Shown: positions 1,009-13,085 of the stretch, piece by piece
Layout: the number at the start of each line of letters is the position of its first letter
How positions within the stretch are numbered: the stretch's first letter is position 1
From: a virus
Taxonomy: Duplodnaviria > Heunggongvirae > Uroviricota > Caudoviricetes
IMG/VR virus record: IMGVR_UViG_3300045996_004585
Coordinates: 65,334 to 81,563 of that record
DNA: 16,230 bases
Strand: one strand, 5' to 3'
Made by a program: the position numbers and the translations under genes
The notes under the pieces: model-generated
Database searches by the model: none
Seen by the model: only the letters and a program-made list of their open reading frames with translations
Told to the model about the DNA's origin: nothing

Positions 1009-1029
1009 TTCGGGTTAAATGCTCGCCCT

Positions 1030-1040
1030 TAATAGACGAG
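1030..1040 (+). promoter_or_regulatory. Candidate late-promoter motif TAATAG-N-YGAG (copy 1, TAATAGACGAG)
   Basis: One of four intergenic copies; lies 80 nt upstream of the 1121 start. Confidence 0.55.
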
Positions 1041-1054
1041 CAGGGTTTGTACAC

Positions 1055-1083
1055 AACCTATCACATCGCGCCCCGTGTGTCAA
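1055..1083 (-). promoter_or_regulatory. sigma70/SigA-type promoter with extended -10
   Basis: Minus strand TTGACA (1083-1078), 17-nt spacer, TAGGTT (1060-1055; fits TANNNT), preceded by TG-A. Confidence 0.75.
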
Positions 1084-1120
1084 CACTAGAAGGCGGCATG
1101 TAACAAGCGAGGAATTATTG

Positions 1121-4100
1121 ATGTTCGCCTACAACGTATCCAACGCCAAAGTCGCCGCTGCCGGTGAACTTCTGTGGCTTGTCACACTTGACGACGAGGT
1201 TCTAGTCCAGACTCCGGGAACCCGCACGCCCAATCATGCAGCCCTAGCTAAACAGTTGAAGGGCGCAGAATGGGCGAAAGCCAAGATCATGGCGGGCGAG
1301 CCACTAGGTTTTGGTGGCACTATCGCAGACGGCAAGATCACTTACTCTGGCCTCATGGGTAGCGAGGGCAGTGTGCCCAAGGCGTATGATCCGCACGGCT
1401 CTATAGTCGGCGGCAATCGAGTACGAGAGGCTGTCGAGAAGGTTTACATCCAGGCAGAGCAGATGGGCATCCCGGTTGACCCGAGCTACTCACTCAACGC
1501 TGTTGTCCCCGGCCAAGGTCTTGTTCCTCATGAGCGCGGCCTGATTGGCAAGATCGCCACAAGCGGTTCGTTCTACAACGAAGTCTTGGGCAAAGACGTT
1601 GACTTTTTAGATGATGGCATCCTAGAAGATTTCAGGCATAGCACTCAAGCTTGGTCTGTGTACGACAAGGATACGGGAGACTACTACGAGATTCGTGAAG
1701 ATGGCACTGTCTATGATGCCGAGACAGGTGAGCATGTAGGATCATTCGATGCCTTCGTAGACCCAACATCTCGTGAGCCAGACGATGACCGTGACCTTGA
1801 TTGGTACCCAGACTGGCACGGCGCTAAGAAAGAGGCAATTTCATGGGATTTCCGCGCACCCAAAGTGCCCGCAGACGAAGAGATGCTCAGAGCGTTTGCG
1901 GCTGACGTACAAGGACTGTTGGGTGAAGCCGATTCTGGATTTGTCTACCAGCGAGTTTTGGAGATTACTAAGGGTGACATCCCATGGAACACTACACCGT
2001 GGCACTGGAACCGAGCAGTCAAGCGCGTTGCAGAGCAGGTTGGTTCATTCGATCAGCCTCGCGGCCCGCGTGTAGATGATGGCCCTGCGGGCGACATGCC
2101 GTTCGGATCGCCCTCGTCACCACGTCGCATGACCAACATGCAGAAGGGCGCTCCATATCCGGGGCATCACGACGAGGATAAGAGTCACGACAAGGAACAC
2201 ATCAAGGGCGCACCTGAGAAGGTGAATGAAATCTATCACGCTTGCATGCGTGACGGCGAAGGCGATAAGGAAAAGTGCGCCAAGATCGCATGGAGTACAT
2301 ACAAGAAGATGAAGAAAAAGAAGAGCGAGGTCGAGAAGACAGCGGGCACCTTTGAGTATCTAGCTGCACCTATGGGCATTCACGGGCGCACTGGTGAGGT
2401 CATGGGCGCACTTGGGCTGAGCGCCACTGTTACGCTTCCGCCAAATGGCGACTATCCTGAAGGACTGGTTGCCCAGATTCCTGGACAAGCCATGGATATT
2501 GCATGGTGGGGACTTGACTACGAAGACTGGGAGGCAGAAGGAGTCGTTGTTCAGGTTGAAACTGACGCAGACCCTACTGTTGTTACAGCTATCTTCGACG
2601 CACTAGGTGGTCGAGCGCCCGCAAACTTTGAGAGCCTTGATCCTCAAGTTCAGCAAGCCATTAGCGCTATGGTGGATGTAGGTGCTTTCCAGCCTCAAGC
2701 GTCCTTGCGCTTTGGTAATGACGCAGTAGTCTGCCCCAAGTGTGGTTCACACACCCTTCGAGCTTACGATCAAGGTGCGAACAACATCAAGTGCCTGACG
2801 TGCGGCAACGAGTTCCATCGAGAGCTACTCAAGAATCCTGAAGCCAAGGCTGGCAAGTGGACGGTCGAGGGCATGGGCGGACGCGCACAAGGGCCGAATG
2901 CCCGAGACATAATGCGCAGCGAGATTATCCGAGAGCTTGGGCTTCAACGCATCTCACTTGAGCAAAACGACATGATCAACGCCGCGATTCAACGAGCATC
3001 TATTGAGGTCAACAAGGGCAGCACTGCCCTTCCACATCGTGCCCTACAGTCCGTTACGTGGGGCGCAATCAAGGATTTGGCTGTCAGCTATATGGGCGGC
3101 ACCGGCCTTGAAGCAGGTGATGAAGACGTACTTAACATGTGGCCCGACACTCTTCCGTGGGATGAGGCCGAACAGGACTACTACCGCAACGCTCGTACAG
3201 CCGCAGGCTATGGATTTGATGGCGGCGCTGCTGAGGACTTCACGGAGTTTGAGGATGGCGGCATGGATGAGCAAGAGGAAATCCGTCACATTCAGAAGAT
3301 GGTCAATGACGGCATGTGGGGCATGCAGGGTTCCTATGGTCGCGAGATGATGCGAGCTATTGAGAATGGGCTTGTCGCACTTGGCCCTGATCCTGCTCAA
3401 GATTACTACGGCAACCGCATCCCATCTCGCTTTGAGGTACAGCCCGGAACGAAAGGTTCTGTCGAGTTCGTTAACGAGAATTCACCCTACGGCGTGCTTG
3501 ACCCTGAGAGCGTTGACGAGCCAGGCAGCACCACGCTGGATGATCTGGGCGTGCCACCTGAGGGAGAAGATTACTACAGAGGCGCGAAGGTCGCTGCCGA
3601 AGGCAAGTACAATGCGGGCCAGCGTGTTCAAATCGAGCATCAGTCCCATAAGGGGCAAAGAGGAACCATTGTGGAATACAGCGGAAAGCACGAAGACTTT
3701 GACGAAGAACAGTATAAAATCCTGCTGGACAGCGGGGAAGAGTTAGAGAACGTAAATGAATCGTTCTTCAAGAAGATTAAGTCAGCCAAGAATATGAGAA
3801 ACGAAAACCTGCCAGATTCAACTCAAGAGTACTCGTTAGATACGATGCATATCGCTGCACCGGGATACCCGCTAATGCCGGGTGAAACTCCGCAGATGGA
3901 AGACGAGATGTTGCTTCGGGGTTCTGACCCTTACGCTGGTCGAAGCGCACCTGGGGATTTCGAAGACGAGATGGACATCGCCAACTGCCCCGCCTGTGAT
4001 GGGCCGGGGATGCTGTTGGGCGAAATGGCTGGCCGCGTTCACTATCGCTGCCGTAACTGTGGCCTAGACTTCTCTCACAAGGAAGAGCCTGAAGTTCCAG

Positions 4101-4753
4101 CAGAGGTTCTGCCGCCTGAGCCACCGCCTGCCCCTGTAGCACCTGAGCCACAAGGCCCGCCTGCACCGGGCATGCCTGGGCAGTTCATGGGGCACACAGC
4201 CAAGTGGCAAGATTCTAATGGTCAGCCCCTCTCAGCAGGCGCTTGGTACCGAATGCACCACAAGGGCTACAAGGTGCCCGATGTAGTGAGAATCTTGAAC
4301 CTAGAGGACAACAGAATCGAGGCAGCTATCGACACTGATGTTAAGGGTGCATTCCCGATCATCATCAGCGAGAACCACGAGTACAGCTTTGAGCCAATCA
4401 CCAAGGAAGCAGAATGGCTATCTGATTTGTGGCTAGATGATGACGGTGAGTTTGAGACACCCTTCAACGTGCCGACCGAGATTCCCGAGTGGGAGGGCGA
4501 ACCAACAGAGTTCATCCCCACAGTGGGTATCGCACCTGATGTAATTCCCTTCAGCGAGGAAGAGCAAGAGTACTACCGCAGCGCCTCCAATTGGCGCATC
4601 GCGCGCAGGAAGTTCTCGCCCGCTGAGCAGCGAGCCTTGATCGAAGAAAACGTAGACGGGCGCGCTCGCAATATGGACAAGCTAGACTTAACTGGAACCC
4701 ACTACGAACTAAAGGAAGCAGACCTTGATCCTGACTTCCTGTGGGGTATGTAA
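1121..4753 (+). CDS. Large multi-module protein (1210 aa), probably virion/head-associated. Contains a ChaB-like helix pair, two CxxC..CxxC zinc ribbons, a KOW/SH3-like module and a Pro-rich linker.
   Basis: Start revised to ATG 1121 (RBS GAGGA at 1109-1113). Modules read from the translation: ChaB-like 2207-2324, CPKC..CLTC 2732-2803, GQRVQIEHQSHKGQRGTIVE KOW-like 3602-3778, CPAC..CRNC 3986-4060. It heads the + strand structural operon. Confidence 0.85.
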   Translation: MFAYNVSNAKVAAAGELLWLVTLDDEVLVQTPGTRTPNHAALAKQLKGAEWAKAKIMAGEPLGFGGTIADGKITYSGLMGSEGSVPKAYDPHGSIVGGNRVREAVEKVYIQAEQMGIPVDPSYSLNAVVPGQGLVPHERGLIGKIATSGSFYNEVLGKDVDFLDDGILEDFRHSTQAWSVYDKDTGDYYEIREDGTVYDAETGEHVGSFDAFVDPTSREPDDDRDLDWYPDWHGAKKEAISWDFRAPKVPADEEMLRAFAADVQGLLGEADSGFVYQRVLEITKGDIPWNTTPWHWNRAVKRVAEQVGSFDQPRGPRVDDGPAGDMPFGSPSSPRRMTNMQKGAPYPGHHDEDKSHDKEHIKGAPEKVNEIYHACMRDGEGDKEKCAKIAWSTYKKMKKKKSEVEKTAGTFEYLAAPMGIHGRTGEVMGALGLSATVTLPPNGDYPEGLVAQIPGQAMDIAWWGLDYEDWEAEGVVVQVETDADPTVVTAIFDALGGRAPANFESLDPQVQQAISAMVDVGAFQPQASLRFGNDAVVCPKCGSHTLRAYDQGANNIKCLTCGNEFHRELLKNPEAKAGKWTVEGMGGRAQGPNARDIMRSEIIRELGLQRISLEQNDMINAAIQRASIEVNKGSTALPHRALQSVTWGAIKDLAVSYMGGTGLEAGDEDVLNMWPDTLPWDEAEQDYYRNARTAAGYGFDGGAAEDFTEFEDGGMDEQEEIRHIQKMVNDGMWGMQGSYGREMMRAIENGLVALGPDPAQDYYGNRIPSRFEVQPGTKGSVEFVNENSPYGVLDPESVDEPGSTTLDDLGVPPEGEDYYRGAKVAAEGKYNAGQRVQIEHQSHKGQRGTIVEYSGKHEDFDEEQYKILLDSGEELENVNESFFKKIKSAKNMRNENLPDSTQEYSLDTMHIAAPGYPLMPGETPQMEDEMLLRGSDPYAGRSAPGDFEDEMDIANCPACDGPGMLLGEMAGRVHYRCRNCGLDFSHKEEPEVPAEVLPPEPPPAPVAPEPQGPPAPGMPGQFMGHTAKWQDSNGQPLSAGAWYRMHHKGYKVPDVVRILNLEDNRIEAAIDTDVKGAFPIIISENHEYSFEPITKEAEWLSDLWLDDDGEFETPFNVPTEIPEWEGEPTEFIPTVGIAPDVIPFSEEEQEYYRSASNWRIARRKFSPAEQRALIEENVDGRARNMDKLDLTGTHYELKEADLDPDFLWGM

Positions 4754-5338
4754 ATGATCGTATCACCTAACATTGGCCTAGAGATTTGGGATGGACTGGC
4801 AGATCAGTTCAACCATACCCTCTTGGCGACAAACCTAAGCGACATCGATGCCTATTTCGTCGGCTTCGATAACACAACCAAGCTCGCCAAGCGACTTCGA
4901 ACCAGCGCAACAGTGCCTGGTTCGGGCGTACAGGGCGATCTTGTCTTCTTGACGGCAGCCGTTGCTGACACGTACCCGGCGAACATCATCCTCCGGTATG
5001 ACGGTTCAGCATGGCGTCCCGTCAACCACCTTGAGATTCACGGCTCTATCCCGACATCAGGCAACTTCGCAGGACGAGTCGTAATCCTGTCTGCCGCATC
5101 CGGCAGCTTCGATGCTTGGAGCATCATCCGCTATGACGGTTCCACTTGGGGGCTAGTCGGCGGCTGGTCAGCTATCAACACAGGCGGTGGCGCACTCAAC
5201 ATCCAAGGTCTAGTGCAGACCAAGGATGCATTCATCAACGACGCTAACAGAGGTTTCGTCTTGAAAGACCGAGTTACAGGGCTGAACTACAGGCTCTTCT
5301 TCACAAATGGCAACCTCTCTTATGAGGCGGTGACCTAA
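4754..5338 (+). CDS. Putative fibre/minor structural protein (194 aa) with two ~45-aa tandem repeats
   Basis: N-terminus SPNIGLEIWD...N...ID and C-terminus LKDRVTGLNYRLFFTNGNL resemble phage fibre termini. Repeated IxRYDGSxW motif. Its ATG directly abuts the upstream stop (TAAATG). Confidence 0.6.
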   Translation: MIVSPNIGLEIWDGLADQFNHTLLATNLSDIDAYFVGFDNTTKLAKRLRTSATVPGSGVQGDLVFLTAAVADTYPANIILRYDGSAWRPVNHLEIHGSIPTSGNFAGRVVILSAASGSFDAWSIIRYDGSTWGLVGGWSAINTGGGALNIQGLVQTKDAFINDANRGFVLKDRVTGLNYRLFFTNGNLSYEAVT

Positions 5339-5817
5339 TGGCTTACGTAGGCGATCCTCCGGGAACACTAAAGGCGTATGCAGGTGGATCAGCACCTGCT
5401 GGCTACCTCATGTGCGACGGCTCAGCCGTCAGCCGCTCAACGTACTCTGTGCTTTGGAACACCATTGGCACAGCTTACGGTTCGGGTGATGGTTCAACGA
5501 CCTTCAATCTTCCAGATTTGAGAGGCCGTGTGCCAGTGGGCGTTGGCTCACATACAGACGTTGACTCATTGGGCAAGAATGACGGCTCATCATTGGCTGA
5601 TCGTCGTGTCAAGCACAAGCACACGTCCACACACAACCTAACCGCTCCTTACCCACAATCCACAAACAGAAGTGGTGGCGAAGAGCCGACAGGTAGCTTG
5701 TGGCAGGGCACAGGAAGTAGTACAGGGGTTAACGGTAGTGTCAGTGTTGGCCCGCAGACAAATGTGCCCACAGATGGCCCTGCATTCGTAACTTTCAACT
5801 ACATCATTAAGACGTAG
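5338..5817 (+). CDS. Phage tail-collar domain protein (tail-fibre/microcystin-dependent-protein-like)
   Basis: PPGTLKAYAGGSAPAGYLMCDGSAVSRSTYSVLWNTIGTAYGSGDGSTTFNLPDLRGRVPVG is the classic Collar (PF07484) signature, with the typical C-terminal P...FNYIIK. TAATG overlap with the upstream gene. Confidence 0.92.
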   Translation: MAYVGDPPGTLKAYAGGSAPAGYLMCDGSAVSRSTYSVLWNTIGTAYGSGDGSTTFNLPDLRGRVPVGVGSHTDVDSLGKNDGSSLADRRVKHKHTSTHNLTAPYPQSTNRSGGEEPTGSLWQGTGSSTGVNGSVSVGPQTNVPTDGPAFVTFNYIIKT

Positions 5818-5870
5818 TTTCACAACAAATACAGCAAGACCTAACGAAGAATTGGTAGGAGAGTATACAC

Positions 5871-6701
5871 ATGATTGAGATTCTAACAGCATCAAAGGAA
5901 CACAGTGAGGATGCAGTTCGCGCTGGTCTTGCCGAGTCACGTCCTGGTTTCAGGATTGAAGCACTTGAGCTAGTAGGCGACGAGTGGAACATCCGCATTT
6001 CCGATGAGGGTGGCTTCCCCTTCAAGAAGAAGGACGAGGATTCCGACTCATCTGAGAAGTCAGAGAAGCCGAAAGATTCCGAAAAGGATGACGATGACAG
6101 CGACGATGACGACAAGAAGGATTCTGATTCCGAGGATAAGGGCGAGAAGAAGGATGACAACTCATCCGTAGAGAAGCTTCGCAGCCTAGTCGAAGAGCTA
6201 CAACAGAAGGTTGAAGAGGTAGTCAACAACGCAGCCGAGGTAGCCGAGGACGCAGATGGCAAGCAGCAGAAGATGGAGGAAATCCACGATTCTGTCAAGG
6301 AGCATGTCAAGGGTGAAGGCGATGGCGAAGGCGAGTTGCCCAAGGGTGACGAGCTAGCTCCGCTACCTGAGGATGGCGTTGGCCTTGAGGACATCGGCCC
6401 GACTCCTGGCGCACCCGCACCGGGTGGCCCGCCTAAGGGTGGCCCGAAGCCTCCGATGCCGCCTGCTGGCCCTGGCGCAAAGCGCCGACCACCGATGGGC
6501 GCACCGGGCGTTTCCACCTTTGGTCGAGCAGTCGTTGCTAATCATCCTGGCGTAGACGAGAAGGGCGAGAAGATCGAGCTTCTTGCTGCTGCATTGCAGA
6601 TCGCTGATGACCCGGAATTCGCAGAGCTTGAACTAGTCGGCATGGTCAAGAACCGTGACGGCAGCTTCTCTGCAAAGTTGCAACCTAGAAACGCAAGCTA
6701 A
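5871..6701 (+). CDS. Acidic, Pro/Gly-rich hypothetical protein (276 aa), likely head-assembly/internal protein
   Basis: RBS AGGAG at 5857-5861. D/E/K/S low-complexity tract, a coiled-coil-like segment (SVEKLRSLVEELQQKVEEVVNN) and a PGGPPKGGPKPPMPP tract. Lies just upstream of the protease-scaffold gene. Confidence 0.8.
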   Translation: MIEILTASKEHSEDAVRAGLAESRPGFRIEALELVGDEWNIRISDEGGFPFKKKDEDSDSSEKSEKPKDSEKDDDDSDDDDKKDSDSEDKGEKKDDNSSVEKLRSLVEELQQKVEEVVNNAAEVAEDADGKQQKMEEIHDSVKEHVKGEGDGEGELPKGDELAPLPEDGVGLEDIGPTPGAPAPGGPPKGGPKPPMPPAGPGAKRRPPMGAPGVSTFGRAVVANHPGVDEKGEKIELLAAALQIADDPEFAELELVGMVKNRDGSFSAKLQPRNAS

Positions 6702-6710
6702 GGAAGCGTC

Positions 6711-6971
6711 ATGGAAGAAGAAAGGCTCTCGTCAAGAGAGGTCGCCGTGCGAGAATTCAATTCGCTACGTGGGCGACTATGTACGGTAATCGAATCAGCG
6801 GGCCTGCCAAAGGTGCAGGAACGCGCGCTGGTAACTCTGATCAAGAATCTAAGCTATCAGCATCAAAAAGTTATTGCGGAACTGCTTGAGCGCCACGAAG
6901 ATGTGATTGAGCAATTGGGTGGCGAAAACCTAGAGTTCCAATACAACGTGAATAAGTTAGTGGAGAAGTAG
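6711..6971 (+). CDS. Small helical hypothetical protein (86 aa)
   Basis: Fills the gap between 6701 and 6973 in operon orientation. AAGGAAG RBS-like sequence upstream; amphipathic helical pattern. Confidence 0.75.
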   Translation: MEEERLSSREVAVREFNSLRGRLCTVIESAGLPKVQERALVTLIKNLSYQHQKVIAELLERHEDVIEQLGGENLEFQYNVNKLVEK

Positions 6972-6972
6972 A

Positions 6973-9282
6973 TTGTTTACCAAATATGCAACTGTCGAAC
7001 AAATCCTTGAAGTGAAGACAGCGCCACAGCGCTTGACGCATCAATACGGTGAAGAGCCTGGACTGAAGTTCGCTAAGTTCGCAGCGATGGACGACATGAA
7101 GACGGAAGATGGCTATCTTTACGTCCGTTGTCGCGCCATCTCTTCCCGAGTCAACAAGAACAATGATGGTTGGCCCGCAGAAGAGTTGATGAAGGCTGCG
7201 CATACGTTCATCGGTAAGCCCATCTTCGTAGACCACAACAATGATGACCCTCGCAGAACGCGCGGAGTCATCATTGACTCTGTGGTTCACACTGAAGACC
7301 CTGAGAAGGTGTCAGCTTTTGATGAGTACTACGCCTCTGCGCCCGAGAACCACACGCCGCCCACCTGGATCGAGCTACTTCTAGAGATTGATGGCGAGAC
7401 GTATCCTAAGCTAGCTGACGCCATCCGCAAGGGTGACATCGATGCTGTCTCCATGGGAGCTAACATCGAGAAGTCGGTCTGTTCTGTATGCGCCAATGAG
7501 GCTGCTACGCCTGCCGAGTACTGCAACCACATCAAACAGAAGGGCATCGAGTTCGAAATCGAGTCCAACACTGGCGAGCGTGTACGCAAGAAGGCATACG
7601 AGGATTGTTACGGCGTCAGCTTCTTCGAAATCTCCAACGTCTTCGATCCGGCTGACGAAACTGCCGACATCCTACACCATAGTGATGAGAAGATCGAGCA
7701 GCTTGCAAAGGCTGCTGGCGTTCAGTTCGAAGAGATGGCAACCTACCTTGCCTCTAAGGGTGAGTACGCCCCCAGAGAGCTTACACGCTCTCCTGGACGC
7801 CTTGCTGTTGCTGCCGCTACTGGCGAGAAGGTGTCTGTAGAGGATTGGAAGAAGAACGTCAAGGTTGCGATGGAGCATCTCGCTGATAATCCGTTGAGGC
7901 AGTTCATGTCTCCGTTGAATCAGTCCGAGCCTGCCTCCCCTAACCGTAACTACGTTCCACAGCACGATATGGTGACAGCGCCACAAGAAGTCAACACCCT
8001 TCGTGATGAAAACACTTGTCCGACATGTCGCTCTGCGAACATGGAGGCTGACACAGACGGCATCATGTCTTGTCCTGTATGTGGGCATGTACAAGAGCCA
8101 GACCCACTAGATAATCCTGACCTAGGTATGGCACGCGATGTTGACCTACGCCAGAACGTCACAGAGGATGTCACCCCCGAGGGTGATGCCTCAGCGCCAG
8201 CGAGCGACCCGCTGGATTCAATCGAATTCTCAACAAGTCCGCAGGTTGCTGCTAGAAAAGCGGGTATAACAGATGAGGGAATTAGTGAGATGTTCACAAC
8301 AAAACTTCGCACCACGTCAAAGGAAGAGGCCGACAAGCTGTTGCCCGTCAAGGTAGCAAGGCTTGAGACTAAGCTAGGCGCTGGCGTAACTCGCGCCCAC
8401 TACAAGGCCGCTCAGGAAGCTGGCATCAGCGTCAAGTTGTCTTATCCGGCAGCTATCGATGAAGACAGCACGCTAACTGTTCCTGGAAATGACGGTATTT
8501 TCAATCTCTTCTACGCAGAAGAGTCAGCATCACAATTGAAGGTTCCGATGTCAGAGGTACCCATCGTCATTGAGGGTGAGCCTGAGGCAGTCGAGAAGTT
8601 CCAAGAGATTTTGACCACAGTTGCTCCGCGCAAGAGCGCAGCTAAGGAGAAGACCCCGATCCTCGATCAGGAAGCCAAGGTTTCCGATGAGCCGAAGGAT
8701 GAGAAGGTTGTCCAGGATGCCAAGGAGCCTGTTGAGTCTAAGGTAGCCATCACACTTGAGGATGGCCGAGTTGAGCTTGACGGCAAGAAGTACACCCTCG
8801 TTCCAGACGAGGATGAGCCGGAAGAGCCAAAGAGCGAGGCTAAGGATGAGGACGAACAAGAGTCTGCTGAAGAATCTCCTGCTAAGGAAGATGAGAAGGA
8901 AGACAAGCAGGAAGAGCCAAAGGCAGATGAAGCCCCATTCGAAGACCCAAAGTCTGAAGAAAAGCCAGCCGAAGACCGCGAGGCTAAGTTGCTCGCAGCA
9001 TTCAAGCTAGCTGATTTGTCAGTAGAAATGGGCATTGTCGATGTAAATGACAAGATGGCATTCATTGCTGAACTAGAAGAACAAAGCATGGAAGCTATTG
9101 CAGCCCGAGAAGCAACATTGAATTCAGTAAAGACTGCTGGACTTGCTAAGCGCACCGCCAAGGTTCCCGGTGGAATCAAGCGCGTACCTCGTCTCGCACA
9201 TTCAGCAACGCCACTTGGCGTTAGCGGGAGTAATAACGGATCAGTTGGAAATGGCTTAGAGGATAGCGATATCTTTCTTTAA
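6973..9282 (+). CDS. Capsid maturation (prohead) protease fused to zinc ribbon and acidic scaffold-like region (769 aa)
   Basis: TTG start with GGAG RBS. Protease-like motifs RAISSRVNKNNDGW, FIGKPIFVDHN (His), DAVSMG (Ser) and FFEISNVFDPAD fit HK97/assemblin-fold prohead serine proteases. CSVC..YCNH insert, CPTC..CPVC at 8017-8082, E/K/D-rich C-terminal third. Lies two genes upstream of the major capsid gene. Confidence 0.8.
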   Translation: MFTKYATVEQILEVKTAPQRLTHQYGEEPGLKFAKFAAMDDMKTEDGYLYVRCRAISSRVNKNNDGWPAEELMKAAHTFIGKPIFVDHNNDDPRRTRGVIIDSVVHTEDPEKVSAFDEYYASAPENHTPPTWIELLLEIDGETYPKLADAIRKGDIDAVSMGANIEKSVCSVCANEAATPAEYCNHIKQKGIEFEIESNTGERVRKKAYEDCYGVSFFEISNVFDPADETADILHHSDEKIEQLAKAAGVQFEEMATYLASKGEYAPRELTRSPGRLAVAAATGEKVSVEDWKKNVKVAMEHLADNPLRQFMSPLNQSEPASPNRNYVPQHDMVTAPQEVNTLRDENTCPTCRSANMEADTDGIMSCPVCGHVQEPDPLDNPDLGMARDVDLRQNVTEDVTPEGDASAPASDPLDSIEFSTSPQVAARKAGITDEGISEMFTTKLRTTSKEEADKLLPVKVARLETKLGAGVTRAHYKAAQEAGISVKLSYPAAIDEDSTLTVPGNDGIFNLFYAEESASQLKVPMSEVPIVIEGEPEAVEKFQEILTTVAPRKSAAKEKTPILDQEAKVSDEPKDEKVVQDAKEPVESKVAITLEDGRVELDGKKYTLVPDEDEPEEPKSEAKDEDEQESAEESPAKEDEKEDKQEEPKADEAPFEDPKSEEKPAEDREAKLLAAFKLADLSVEMGIVDVNDKMAFIAELEEQSMEAIAAREATLNSVKTAGLAKRTAKVPGGIKRVPRLAHSATPLGVSGSNNGSVGNGLEDSDIFL

Positions 9283-9320
9283 GCCAAGAAACACTATAAA
9301 CCTTATCTCAACACGATTAG

Positions 9321-9331
9321 TAATAGTTGAG
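9321..9331 (+). promoter_or_regulatory. Candidate late-promoter motif (copy 2, TAATAGTTGAG)
   Basis: In the intergenic gap before the decoration/capsid genes; overlaps the RBS GAGGGAG. Confidence 0.6.
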
Positions 9332-9347
9332 GGAGACTTTTAAAACT

Positions 9348-9884
9348 ATGATTAGATCAAATAATGCAGCAAGAGTAGGACAGAAGCGCACGATCCGCCC
9401 GCTATACGCATGGCACAGTGCGGTTCCCTACGCTTGCTTCCTAGACGTAACCACTGGTGCGATTGCGGGTACGAAGGCGATTACGTCTTCTGACTACGTA
9501 TTCCCCGGTCAGGTAGCCGTCAAGACGACAGGCGAGCAGATGAGGCTTGCGATTGGTCAGGCAGCGACACCCGCTTTCGGACTATTCAACAACTTCATCG
9601 GCGGCGTCATGGACGAGCTTGGTGGCGGCACGGAAATCGGCGTATGGGTCGGTGGCCGTGATTCAGTATTTGAGGTTCTCAAAGGCCCGAACGCTTCTGA
9701 GACTCCGCTTGCTGATGGTGTAACATGGACTTCGTTGAACGCGACAGTAGGTGGTGTAGCACTCTTCAGTGATGCATCAGGTCGCCTAACGAACACAGCA
9801 GGTACAGGACTACGAGTCGCTCGACTTATTGAAGCCGTAAGCGATAGCAAGATCATCCTACAGCTTGATCTAGCGACGGCATAA
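9348..9884 (+). CDS. Capsid decoration (cement) protein, Bxz1/cluster C-like
   Basis: Start revised to ATG 9348 (RBS GAGGGAG 9329-9335). QKRTIRPLYAWHSAVPYACFLD, VWVGGRDSVFEVL and VARLIEAVSDSKIILQL match my recollection of the decoration protein preceding the MCP in cluster C mycobacteriophages. Position and size fit. Confidence 0.8.
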   Translation: MIRSNNAARVGQKRTIRPLYAWHSAVPYACFLDVTTGAIAGTKAITSSDYVFPGQVAVKTTGEQMRLAIGQAATPAFGLFNNFIGGVMDELGGGTEIGVWVGGRDSVFEVLKGPNASETPLADGVTWTSLNATVGGVALFSDASGRLTNTAGTGLRVARLIEAVSDSKIILQLDLATA

Positions 9885-9899
9885 GGGAGATTGATAAAG

Positions 9900-10868
9900 A
9901 TGTTTGATCCTAACAGAAAGGCCGTCAAGAGCGATGACTTCGTAGCAAAGCTAGCAGGAGTACCAAAGCTTTCTGACGAGCAAAAGACAGCTAAGCTTCA
10001 GCAAATCTGGAACAGTGACAACGACGCTACCAAGCGCGGAGCATTCCGTCGCATCGGTCAGGGTATGATTGGCCCGATTCAGATCAAGTTGAAGTATGAA
10101 GGAATTGGTCGAAACATTCTAGTGGAAGACCCGCTAGAGCGTGGATTCCCGATGCCATATGAGGTTCTTGACGATCTTGGTCAGGCGTACATTCTTAACC
10201 AGACTGACGCCGAAGTCAAGACGACACCCTTCGAAGGCAAGTGGGTTCCGCCGACGCTCTTCCGCATCGCTTCATTCCCGTACATCCGCAAGGAAGACTT
10301 GTACTTCCTACGTGCCAACCTAGTTGAGCATGCGCAGGAGATGACGCGAGAAGCGATTATGAAGCAGGAGGACGGTCGTCTCTTGACCCTTCTCTCAAGC
10401 GCTATCACGGACTACGGCACCAACGCCGACCACGTAATCACCCCTGATCACGTTGTCGAGATTGGCGCAGGTAACCCGCTCGATATCGTAGACTTCTACG
10501 ACGCAGTTTCACGAATCCAGCTTCACGAGTTGGAGGTAAGCCGAGTCCTCTTGAACCCGGTCGATCTTCGTGACTTGTACACCTGGGATGTCAACGTAAC
10601 TGGTTGGAACTTCAAGGATCGCGTTGTTGGTGGAGACACCATCACGCAGTTCGGTGAGTTTACCTTCCAGACGAGCATCATGGTGCCGCAGGGAACGATC
10701 TTCTTGGTTCCAGAGCCGAACTTCCTAGGCGTCATGCCCATCATGTACAGCCTGGACGTGGAAGAGAACAACCAGATCGAGCAGTTCCGTCGAGGTTGGG
10801 TATTCGATGAGCTTATCGGCATGATGGTTCTTAACCCACGCGGTCTAGCAGCTATCAAGAAGGTGTAA
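9900..10868 (+). CDS. Major capsid protein (HK97 fold), Bxz1/cluster C-like
   Basis: Start revised to ATG 9900 (RBS AAGGGAG 9883-9889). GQGMIGPIQIKLKYEG, VLDDLGQAY, TPFEGK, LFRIASFP.I.KEDLY, MYSLDVEE.N and GWVFDELIGMMVLNPRG closely match the Bxz1-type MCP as recalled. Confidence 0.92.
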   Translation: MFDPNRKAVKSDDFVAKLAGVPKLSDEQKTAKLQQIWNSDNDATKRGAFRRIGQGMIGPIQIKLKYEGIGRNILVEDPLERGFPMPYEVLDDLGQAYILNQTDAEVKTTPFEGKWVPPTLFRIASFPYIRKEDLYFLRANLVEHAQEMTREAIMKQEDGRLLTLLSSAITDYGTNADHVITPDHVVEIGAGNPLDIVDFYDAVSRIQLHELEVSRVLLNPVDLRDLYTWDVNVTGWNFKDRVVGGDTITQFGEFTFQTSIMVPQGTIFLVPEPNFLGVMPIMYSLDVEENNQIEQFRRGWVFDELIGMMVLNPRGLAAIKKV

Positions 10869-10870
10869 TC

Positions 10871-11113
10871 ATGGCTCAAGGTTCTAACAGCGCAGGCACA
10901 CGCGACACCCGAGTAGACCGTCCCAGTGAGGGTCTACCGGGAGTTGCTACCGCCGAGAATCCTACGGCGAACCCTCCCACGAGGGCTACCCAGGACATCG
11001 GTAAGGCACTACCCCGCACGCAGCCTCGTGTACGTGCAAACATTGACACGAGCGGTACGTCAGGACTTCAGCAAGCTGATGACGTAAAGCGCGGAGAACC
11101 GAACGCTTGGTAA
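10871..11113 (+). CDS. Small low-complexity hypothetical protein (80 aa) directly after the MCP
   Basis: Starts 2 nt after the MCP stop, with AAGGTG RBS-like sequence inside the MCP end. Rich in T/R/P/G; ends just before the terminator. Confidence 0.7.
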   Translation: MAQGSNSAGTRDTRVDRPSEGLPGVATAENPTANPPTRATQDIGKALPRTQPRVRANIDTSGTSGLQQADDVKRGEPNAW

Positions 11114-11135
11114 CCCCGAGTGCAGCGAAATGAGA

Positions 11136-11161
11136 AGAGGGGCGGCTTTTGCCGCCCCTCT
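11136..11161. terminator. Probable bidirectional intrinsic terminator between convergent genes
   Basis: Perfect 11-bp inverted repeat AGAGGGGCGGC-TTTT-GCCGCCCCTCT between the stops at 11113 (+) and 11168 (-). Both flanks are pyrimidine-rich rather than pure U. Confidence 0.85.
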
Positions 11162-11167
11162 CTCGTT

Positions 11168-11356
11168 CTACGGTGCGGTGAGGATCAAATCACCGAGTAG
11201 GTCGATGAGGTTGCGAGCGTGCTTCAACTGCGCAAGGTACGCCTCTTCGTCCTCAGTGATGTCCTGCTTCGTGTCAAGGCGCTGATACTCTGCCTCAACG
11301 TTATCGAAGAGTGCATCAAGAGTCTCTACCGTGCTTCTGTAGGAACCTACGGCCAT
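11168..11356 (-). CDS. Small acidic helical hypothetical protein (62 aa), solitary antisense gene
   Basis: Strong RBS AGGAGG (11361-11366), its own extended -10 promoter upstream and a terminator downstream. Confidence 0.85.
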   Translation of the reverse strand: MAVGSYRSTVETLDALFDNVEAEYQRLDTKQDITEDEEAYLAQLKHARNLIDLLGDLILTAP

Positions 11357-11382
11357 CCAACCTCCTATGTAGTGGTCTATCT

Positions 11383-11393
11383 ATTATAGCACA
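11383..11393 (-). promoter_or_regulatory. Extended -10 promoter (TGTGCTATAAT)
   Basis: Perfect TATAAT (11388-11383) with a TG-n extension and no convincing -35. It sits upstream of the RBS and ATG 11356. Confidence 0.75.
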
Positions 11394-11432
11394 AATCGGC
11401 GTTCGCACATAGTTTTCCGGGCCAACGCCCAC

Positions 11433-11443
11433 TAATAGTCGAG
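11433..11443 (+). promoter_or_regulatory. Candidate late-promoter motif (copy 3, TAATAGTCGAG)
   Basis: Lies where + strand transcription must restart after the 11136 terminator; 52 nt before ATG 11496. Confidence 0.65.
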
Positions 11444-11495
11444 ATACGCCTGCCATATCTCAATCCAATTCAGGCAGGAAGTCAGGGAAATTGAA

Positions 11496-12002
11496 ATGGC
11501 ACAGAAGAACGAAGATACGCTATATGTAAGGAACGCACGACCGAATTCACTGGTAATTCGTTACGCAGGAACTCGACAGTTGCTTGGCCATCGAGGAAGC
11601 CGCACCGATTCTTGGGCACTTCCGAGAGAGGCAGAGAACGATCAGACGATTGCACGTTGGTTGAAGAGCGGTCATCTGGAAAAGATTAGCAAGGAATCGT
11701 ACATGAAGTTGAGCGCACGCACGATTGATGTGCTGCCGAACGAGTACCTTGAGAAGCGCCTACGCCAGCGCAATGGCCTAGACGTTAAGATGAGTCCGGC
11801 TGATGCCGACACCACACGTACTCTAACACAGATTACTGACGGCGACGTTCACAAGCAGGTTCGGGACACTGTATCTCCCAAGTGGGCAGGCGAGTTGATG
11901 ACCACTGAGGAAGAGCTAGAGTCCACTGAATTCGAAACACAGCAGGCAGACTACCCGAGTCACCACCGTGACTCAGAAGCCCGTCGCCAGATGGGTTACT
12001 AG
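11496..12002 (+). CDS. Hypothetical protein (168 aa), capsid-neighbourhood
   Basis: Folded-looking N-terminus (LYVRNARPNSLVIRYAG...IARWLKSGHLEKI) with a more disordered C-terminus. In operon orientation, downstream of the late motif. Confidence 0.8.
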   Translation: MAQKNEDTLYVRNARPNSLVIRYAGTRQLLGHRGSRTDSWALPREAENDQTIARWLKSGHLEKISKESYMKLSARTIDVLPNEYLEKRLRQRNGLDVKMSPADADTTRTLTQITDGDVHKQVRDTVSPKWAGELMTTEEELESTEFETQQADYPSHHRDSEARRQMGY

Positions 12003-12009
12003 GAGAAAA

Positions 12010-12942
12010 ATGGCAACTAAGGAAGAGCTACTAGAGAAGAATCTAGACGACCTTAAGGAGATGGCGAAGGAAGCCGACCTTAAGGGTCGTTCTAGCATGG
12101 GCAAGGAAGAGCTAGCCGAGGCGCTTGCTGATGGTGGTTCTTCCGATGAGGCAGAGGTTGAGGCTGAGGCCAAGGCTGATGACGGCGAGGATCATGACGC
12201 ACCTTTGGGTCACGATTCCGCAGCCTCTGATGCATCCGACCAAGACGTAGTTGACGAACTGTCACCGTCAGGCAAGGAAGCATTCGAAGAGATGGGCGAC
12301 GTAGCTGCACATGAGGCTGACCTTGCGCTCGACGCAAGTGGCCCGCTGCACCTACAGTCACCGCATGATCGCATCATGACCGGGGCAGTCTCAGAAGAGC
12401 ATGCCAAGGAGCAAGAGGAAGCGCTTGCAGATCGCCCCGAAGACGGCGCATATGCTGGCGAGGTTACTGAAGCAGGATTCAGCGAAGACGGTTCATTTTC
12501 ACACTTGAAGTCTGAGGACGAGCAAGCTGTCTCTGATCCTGACAAGACCAAGGGTGAGCTTCGCGCCGCAGGCGAGCTTAAGCAGGAAGACGTTATCGAC
12601 TATGAGGCATACCGCGAGGATGCTGATGAGGCCGATGAAGAGTTTGACGCTTCTGCAAAGCTAGCACAAGGTGCAGGCTTCGGCAATTCTGACGTAGCAG
12701 GTGGCGGCGAGTACGCACGCCCGTATGGTCAGAAGGCAGTCTTCTACACGGACGGTCTAGGTGGAGCCGCAGAGCAGAACCTAGAGCGCGCGTATGAGAT
12801 TCCCGAGCTTCTACAGTCTAACGATCCTGTAGTCCGCGAGGCTGGCGATGAGTCAGACTCTGAGGGCAAGGAAATGTCAGACGAAGACAAGCAGGAAGCC
12901 GAGGAAGTCAAGGAAGGCTCACGTCAAGAGTCTGACGAGTAA
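12010..12942 (+). CDS. Rho_N/HeH-domain protein with long acidic tail (310 aa)
   Basis: Start revised to ATG 12010 (RBS AGGAG at 12001-12005). ELLEKNLDDLKEMAKEADLKGRSSMGKEELAEAL fits the Rho termination factor N-terminal (PF07498) helix-extension-helix pattern. About 29% D+E by hand count. Confidence 0.8.
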   Translation: MATKEELLEKNLDDLKEMAKEADLKGRSSMGKEELAEALADGGSSDEAEVEAEAKADDGEDHDAPLGHDSAASDASDQDVVDELSPSGKEAFEEMGDVAAHEADLALDASGPLHLQSPHDRIMTGAVSEEHAKEQEEALADRPEDGAYAGEVTEAGFSEDGSFSHLKSEDEQAVSDPDKTKGELRAAGELKQEDVIDYEAYREDADEADEEFDASAKLAQGAGFGNSDVAGGGEYARPYGQKAVFYTDGLGGAAEQNLERAYEIPELLQSNDPVVREAGDESDSEGKEMSDEDKQEAEEVKEGSRQESDE

Positions 12943-12969
12943 CCTCTCGCACACAGCCAAAAAGAGTTG

Positions 12970-13006
12970 AGGGACGGCCAGGTGCCGTCCCTTACTTGTT
13001 TGTGTT
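12970..13006 (+). terminator. Intrinsic terminator
   Basis: 9-bp stem AGGGACGGC-CAGGT-GCCGTCCCT (12970-12992) followed by TACTTGTTTGTGTT, 27 nt after the 12942 stop. Confidence 0.85.
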
Positions 13007-13020
13007 GATATTCCAGGCCG

Positions 13021-13031
13021 TAATAGGTGAG
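13021..13031 (+). promoter_or_regulatory. Candidate late-promoter motif (copy 4, TAATAGGTGAG)
   Basis: Immediately downstream of the terminator and 54 nt upstream of ATG 13086. Confidence 0.65.
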
Positions 13032-13085
13032 CGGTACCACTTGCGTAGTGGGGCAAACCGAAACTAGACAACGCTCAGAGGAAAT

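Follow-up and report, generated by a model that had tools for sequence, protein, structure and literature searches.

What is the 11-letter motif TAATAG-N-YGAG that stands at the head of several gene blocks in the DNA of an uncultivated soil phage, and does it start their transcription? The window analysed here is a stretch of 16,230 nucleotides (nt) at the right end (positions 65334-81563) of the 81.5-kb IMG/VR record IMGVR_UViG_3300045996_004585 (G+C 53%), referred to below as G000, whose source is a myovirus. A first-pass annotation, made from the letters of the window, had put the motif forward as a candidate phage late promoter at four operon starts. The reading reached here, held with a probability of about 0.6, is that TAATAG-N-YGAG forms the core of a phage-specific promoter element, to which host RNA polymerase would be redirected by a phage factor.

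The pattern was scanned as an exact match in both the window and the whole record. The window contained four matches, all on the + strand and all between genes (0.04 expected; none of 200 shuffles reached four), so that the copies reported in the first-pass annotation were recovered in place:

1030-1040, + strand: motif copy 1, 80 nt before ATG 1121 of a protein of 1210 amino acids (aa), opening the gene block 1121-9282
9321-9331, + strand: motif copy 2, 16 nt before ATG 9348 of the 178-aa gene located just ahead of the major capsid gene
9348-10868, + strand: operon behind copy 2, consisting of the 178-aa gene and the major capsid gene (9891-10868)
11433-11443, + strand: motif copy 3, 52 nt before ATG 11496 of a 168-aa gene
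13021-13031, + strand: motif copy 4, 54 nt before ATG 13086 of a 281-aa gene

The full record contained six exact copies (0.16 expected from a Markov null; never more than 1 in 100 simulations), again all on the + strand and located between 43.9 and 78.4 kb. Five of the six are intergenic in a record of which only about 6% is non-coding, which by our arithmetic has a chance of about 1e-5. Its statement that no copy lies inside a coding region is true of the window and fails for the genome. At G000 43916 a terminator is followed by the fifth intergenic copy, behind which comes the operon of a 3504-aa protein; the sixth copy (G000 50682; L009:10682-10692) is located inside the open reading frame (ORF) of that protein. 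Between 43.9 and 81.5 kb, the motif was present in five of the six gaps of at least 60 nt that precede + strand genes, and the remaining gap held a copy with one mismatch at G000 60553. Allowing one mismatch throughout G000 added 6 matches against 6.2 ± 2.7 by chance, and the one-mismatch class is therefore not enriched. The copy at G000 60553 (L010:4553-4563) overlaps the start codon of a 1068-aa gene and has a TAATAG-to-ATG distance of 3 nt, compared with the usual 5 nt at its orthologue, position 46622 of the relative G001 described below.

The major capsid protein of G000 is 52% identical to those of the cluster C mycobacteriophages, Gordonia phage Skog and Rhodococcus phage E3, and the label Bxz1-like given in the first-pass annotation therefore denotes a merely distant relation. 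Much closer relatives are known solely as uncultivated contigs. Two of them were used as reference genomes: G001, a complete genome of 158 kb with a capsid protein 87% identical to that of G000, and G002 (81.6 kb; capsid 59% identical). About 170 further loci, carrying L numbers, were collected around capsid homologues, and capsid relatives in IMG/VR alone number more than 350. Synteny with G001 indicates that G000 covers roughly half of a genome of about 158 kb; the record itself is tagged as a provirus and as 81% complete, a figure at odds with the missing half. The protein database holds an 88.8-kb copy of the G000 contig, and the INPHARED phage collection contained no near-identical match. 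A literature search for a TAATAG promoter or for promoters of Bxz1-type phages returned nothing relevant.

The exact motif was absent from G001 and G002, and a variant form was recovered there by unbiased word counts. The most enriched upstream word in G001 was AATAGATGA, given also as AATAGATG(A), with 10 of 18 copies upstream of ORFs (p about 3e-9), and in G002 TAATAG was among the three most enriched upstream words. The G001 copies occur on both strands and are oriented towards the next gene. One motif copy each, at G001 36975 and G000 50682, lies within the giant polyvalent-protein ORF, and these may be internal promoters.

With the pattern loosened to wAAT-N3-YGAG, matches were found in relatives at the positions orthologous to sites 2, 3 and 4. 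Site 2 persists in L011, L034, L035, L036, L043, L050 and L205, where its first letter is T, G or A, and an orthologous copy is also present in G001. Site 3 appears as TAAT-N3-YGAG in L035/L040, L196-L200, L193/L194 and L195, as AAAT-N3-YGAG in L205 and as TAATAGATGAA in G001, and the gap surrounding it is otherwise diverged in every relative that keeps the motif. L205 retains site 4 as well as the small hairpin behind it. L205, which had been fetched for an unrelated reason, displayed four + strand matches to the loosened pattern, each just ahead of a gene block; these are the orthologues of sites 2, 3 and 4 and one at the amidase gene. In the gap orthologous to site 1, G001 has a related TAATA-type word. 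Motif discovery on related phages, a check proposed in the first-pass annotation, was carried out by expectation-maximisation on the upstream regions of capsid operons, 64 distinct sequences in all from phages with 55-93% capsid identity, and gave an nAAT-N3-TGA core. Pattern counts in 18 more distant genomes did not exceed controls, which confines the motif class to the near subclade, and in Catera (cluster C, Bxz1-type) and Skog the motif was absent before the gene preceding the capsid gene.

Where the RNA begins was approached indirectly. Some 17 contigs, 1.56-1.78 kb in length and derived from different phages, cover exactly the operon made up of the 178-aa gene homologue and the capsid gene; they start 13-52 nt before the start codon of that homologue and end 20-100 nt past the capsid stop. 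Since random DNA fragments would not show such ends, the operon-sized contigs are taken as assembled mRNAs. Operon-sized contigs from soil and rhizosphere comprise L049, L056, L060, L065, L067, L070, L071, L074, L076, L079, L080, L092, L102 and L108 for the capsid operon and L193, L194 and L199 for the two-gene operon of site 3. When 14 of the capsid-operon contigs were set against DNA contigs from near relatives, the 5' end fell past the motif in at least 10, at a distance of 13-20 nt from the first base of the motif wherever the two could be aligned. In G001 and G002 a distance of exactly 5 nt from TAATAG to the ATG of a real ORF is far commoner than any other spacing (7 of 89 copies and 4 of 41 copies, respectively). 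The host-type -10 boxes of the same genomes display the same leaderless habit with a spacing of 6 nt, and some G002 copies consist of TATAAT followed by AG. The contig ends, the ATG spacing and the leader hairpins, which at sites 3 and 4 begin 3-6 nt past the motif, together place the 5' boundary of the RNA at the motif and most probably just past it.

The elements that surround the copies in the window are the following:

9293-9300, + strand: ACTATAAA box, 20 nt upstream of copy 2, a candidate -35-like element present in the window at site 2 only
11136-11161, bidirectional: stem-loop that ends the capsid operon and an antisense 62-aa gene, read from the sequence
11449-11478, + strand: conserved leader hairpin between copy 3 and the ribosome-binding site of the 168-aa gene, predicted by RNAalifold
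12968-12994, bidirectional: terminator-like hairpin before copy 4, matched by the terminator scan

The two hairpins that the first-pass annotation had placed upstream of sites (at 11136 and 12970) do exist. The one at 11136-11161 has a stem of 11 base pairs and a TTTT loop and fails the T-run rule of the terminator scan, which the one at 12968-12994 passes. The absence of a host-type -35 also held, as none of the window copies coincides with a -35/-10 pair of the sigma-70 type. In a profile anchored on 27 sites the information resided almost wholly in the 11-mer, with a weaker block, ACTAYAAA, 20-27 nt upstream. ACTAYAAA was found 18-20 nt upstream at site 2 and at several G001 sites, and four of the five intergenic copies in G000 are without an upstream box. 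In close relatives all 15 copies of ACTATAAA lie upstream of ORFs.

The leader hairpin at 11449-11478 has six pairs, three of them with compensatory changes among seven sequences from as many phages. A small hairpin with CCACT/AGTGG arms lies at 13037-13051, 5 bases after copy 4, and its counterpart in L205 (about 4947-4962) has a different loop. No RNA fold was common to the five intergenic G000 sites, no Rfam family matched at the sites, and no consensus fold was predicted for the capsid-operon leaders of distant relatives. In an alignment of such relatives (A2, including L066, L075, L101, L110, L176 and L180), the inverted repeat CCGTC...GACGG brackets the capsid-operon motif in columns 43-71, with 73% of cells paired compared with 27-39% in slid controls. 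Columns 74-90 of the same alignment form a GC-rich stem-loop after the motif, where the transcript-like contigs begin, and an upstream ACTTAYTTT box is in these relatives often located in the loop of an additional hairpin.

In this phage the motif precedes nearly all blocks of genes for particle building and lysis, and its five intergenic copies stand at the head of + strand gene blocks in the structural half of the record. Copy 1 is followed by the gene of the 1210-aa protein, by fibre-like genes and by a gene with a protease domain. The longest ORF (1019-4753) spans site 1, but the true start is ATG 1121, which has a Shine-Dalgarno sequence 7 nt upstream and opens with an N-terminal F-A-Y also found in the G001 orthologue. 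The major capsid gene behind copy 2 matched PHROG 2522, major head protein (1e-88). In L205 the homologue of the 178-aa gene (439-1005) matches Pfam Phage_cement_3, which points to a possible role of the 178-aa product as a decoration or cement protein instead of a scaffold. Copy 3 heads two unnamed genes, the second of which (11968-12942) encodes a 324-aa protein with a Rho_N-like N-terminal segment at 24.1 bits, just under the cut-off of 24.9; its counterpart in L202 shows the same weak match. Downstream of the 281-aa gene behind copy 4, whose closest homologue is 88% identical, lie two genes for cell-wall hydrolases, one an NlpC/P60 enzyme and the other a GH25 muramidase.

The first-pass annotation had further suggested a search for a sigma factor or RNA polymerase gene, and the two halves of that search came out differently. 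No single-subunit or beta-prime-like RNA polymerase was detectable in G000, G001 or G002, which makes it most likely that the motif is read by the host core enzyme with a phage specificity factor. The notion of an N4-like system, suggested by the 3504-aa ORF, was rejected, as that protein contains no polymerase family. A sigma gene was detected in G001 and none in G000. The G001 gene (115031-115549; L030:1372-1890) encodes 172 aa with regions 2 and 4 (Pfam Sigma70_r4, 2.6e-11; region 2, 23-24 bits; PHROG 351, 7e-19). Among named proteins it is closest to the sigma factors of large Bacillus phages (22-36% identity), several of which are annotated as SigF-like. An extended -10 of host type, TGnTATAAT, stands 6 nt before its GTG start, which suits a factor made early that redirects the host enzyme. 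In the region upstream of the gene (114650-115030) about 230 nt are duplicated in tandem, with a tRNA-like T-arm sequence inside the duplication. Elsewhere in G001, a small protein (142565-143080; L031:1144-1659) with a zinc-ribbon-like N-terminus has a helix-turn-helix that weakly resembles sigma region 4 (20 bits, under the cut-off), and distant relatives carry ORFs of about 130 aa with similar weak region-4-like matches.

The course of events that we propose may be depicted as follows. A small sigma with regions 2 and 4, such as that of G001, would be expressed from a host-type early promoter and is the best candidate for the factor that reads the motif. TAATAG would serve as a non-canonical -10-like box with the start a few bases after the motif, and the ACTATAAA box at the capsid operon may add a -35-like contact. 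Rightward transcription would thereby be restarted ahead of each block of virion, injected-protein and lysis genes. The promoter proposed in the first-pass annotation gains from the co-orientation of the copies with their genes, their position after terminators or divergent cassettes, their conservation and their coincidence with the 5' boundary of the transcript-like contigs. The small leftward genes and the left half of G000 are transcribed from host-type promoters, which have the form TTGnnn-N17-TGnTATAAT or a TATACT -10 and are unlike the motif sites. The word late fared less well: the G000 copies are confined to the structural half, but G001 has copies ahead of small non-structural genes and of the ribonucleotide reductase block as well, and non-early is therefore the safer term.

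Several observations weigh against the promoter reading. We infer the RNA nature of the transcript-like contigs solely from their sizes and ends. Three capsid-operon contigs (L056, L057 and L092) begin upstream of the motif, and L193 and L194 (1662 and 1594 nt), from the operon of site 3, begin 2 nt before it; in all five the motif would lie inside the RNA, and the latter two conflict with a role as a -10 box. A start about 6 nt after TAATAG would cost the mRNA of site 2 most of its GAGGGAG ribosome-binding sequence. TAATAG has a G where the sigma-70 -10 has its most conserved T. Site 4 is absent from the orthologous position in the closest relatives, L035/L040, and a matrix built from distant relatives only was discarded as too weak, since it failed to single out sites 1 and 3 in G000. 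The sigma gene is not in G000, a fragment without the region concerned, which by synteny would lie beyond its right end. It was found only in G001 and a few short contigs: a single-protein search of 19 relatives returned no homologue, an IMG/VR scan returned G001 itself only, and the protein database gave seven homologues (42-56% identity) on short contigs in addition to a truncated copy of the G001 protein. The link between this sigma and the motif is accordingly one that we infer. Finally, the G001 copies ahead of non-structural genes make a late timing doubtful.

Some of these points would follow naturally if the motif acted in RNA, as a processing site or a conserved 5'-terminal sequence to which a phage or host factor binds for stability or translation, at or near the 5' end of an mRNA whose transcription starts further upstream. 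The five contigs that begin before the motif fit such a signal, the fixed 5-nt ATG spacing in G001 and G002 would equally fit a short leader of fixed length, and small hairpins after the motif, with an inverted repeat around it in distant relatives, are what an RNA element might show. Yet nothing is conserved 7-12 nt upstream or elsewhere close by where the real promoter should be, the information residing in the 11-mer; several copies directly follow terminators, so that little upstream RNA should arrive; neither a fold common to the five sites nor an Rfam family was detected; and most of the transcript-like contigs begin past the motif. We regard a signal of this kind as unlikely. A related proposal denies that the 11-mer is a -10 box and makes it either a start signal with both boxes in the loops or arms of DNA hairpins, modelled on the pattern upstream of the capsid operon in distant relatives, or an obligatory 5'-terminal sequence of late mRNAs, in both cases read by a phage factor of a type as yet undescribed in sigma-dependent transcription; it appears quite improbable.

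The copies could also be weak host promoters with the -10 in the frame nnTAAT, used by a primary or alternative host sigma with the help of a phage activator that recognises AG-N-YGAG. The late promoters of N4, activated by the N4 single-stranded DNA-binding protein, and the activated late promoters of P2 and Mu provide a general model for such a scheme. In several G002 copies TAATAG is preceded by TA, giving an exact TATAAT, or by GA or AA (GATAAT, AATAAT), and these copies carry the leaderless spacing; the conserved YGAG sits where a discriminator or activator contact would be expected, and G000 has no sigma gene. In G000 and G001, however, the bases before TAATAG are C-rich and never TA, so that the essential A at -11 is missing in that frame, a phage sigma exists in the complete relative G001, and no activator candidate was identified. 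We find the activator scheme improbable. We consider it very unlikely that the motif is an operator, or some other binding site for a protein, through which nearby promoters are regulated but by which polymerase is not itself positioned. Its brevity, its exactness and its recurrence at the heads of operons would suit such a site, as would the leftward host-type promoter that site 1 faces and the inverted repeats around the motif in distant relatives; but it is not palindromic, always points the same way as the gene downstream of it on either strand of G001, and lies in gaps with no other promoter-like element. Chance or composition has next to nothing to recommend it. TAATAG holds two stop codons in frame, hence its mild depletion in genes, and TAA-TAG stops might accumulate in non-coding DNA; against this stand the six exact copies where 0.16 were expected, the retention of their position in several genomes, in gaps otherwise diverged, and the finding that no ORF of at least 60 aa ends at any window copy.

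With the promoter reading, a testable map of transcription units becomes available for a large clade of uncultivated soil myoviruses, with host-type leaderless early promoters, a second phage-specific class for virion, injected-protein and lysis genes, and a candidate sigma. If true, it would represent a new sigma-promoter pair, would assign the operon of the giant polyvalent protein to the same class as the virion genes and would help to annotate gene timing in metagenomic phage genomes. The operon-sized contigs could moreover give a free transcript map for the clade. No current idea of phage transcription is overturned.

How, then, does the motif relate to the promoters already described? 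The late promoters of T4 consist of an 8-base-pair element, TATAAATA, near -10, need no -35 and are read by gp55 with gp33 and the gp45 clamp. The motif resembles them in being a short -10-region element that lacks a -35 at most sites (four of the five intergenic ones), lies ahead of virion and lysis genes and is distinct from the host-type early promoters of the same genome. It differs from TATAAATA in sequence, in its 11 nt with a conserved 3' YGAG and in the extra box at site 2; the G001 sigma has a region 4, which gp55 does not. Homologues of gp55 and gp33 were not seen, in an analysis in which no search was aimed at them by name or profile. In the Bacillus phage SPO1 and its relatives, the middle and late promoters are read by the phage sigmas gp28 and gp33/gp34 on the host core polymerase. 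The likeness here lies in a large myovirus without a polymerase of its own, with host-type early promoters and a small sigma that in G001 is predicted to be expressed early. The SPO1 promoters, in contrast, are bipartite with normal spacing and other sequences, whereas the -35-like box of the motif is found only at some sites and 20 nt from TAATAG.

Closer to hand are the host-type leaderless promoters of these phages (TGnTATAAT, 6 nt, ATG), which occur in the same genomes and likewise keep a fixed distance from box to start codon. TAATAG lacks the TG, the final T and the TTGnnn 17 nt upstream, and serves another set of genes. Promoters of the sigma-70 type have a TTGACA-like -35 located 16-18 nt upstream of a TAnnnT -10 (A at -11, T at -7), with an optional TG. 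No -35 consensus match coincides with the motif copies, the anchored profile is empty at that distance, and TAATAG ends in G, with C-rich first two bases if read in the frame nnTAAT.

The letters shared with T7 and SP6 promoters (a TAATA start, TAGGTGA as in SP6, CACTATA upstream) are a resemblance that we take to be superficial: only 11 nt are conserved in place of a block of about 23 base pairs, and no single-subunit polymerase (PF00940) was matched in G000, G001 or G002, a family that the bacterial controls cannot detect. The promoter of the N4 virion polymerase, a giant enzyme, is a stem of 5-7 base pairs with a loop of 3 nt, whereas the sites of the motif share no hairpin and the inverted repeats, where present, enclose loops of 10-15 nt. 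The motif is thus of neither the T7 nor the N4 type; it would work like the T4 late or SPO1-type promoters, but its sequence fits the definition of neither.

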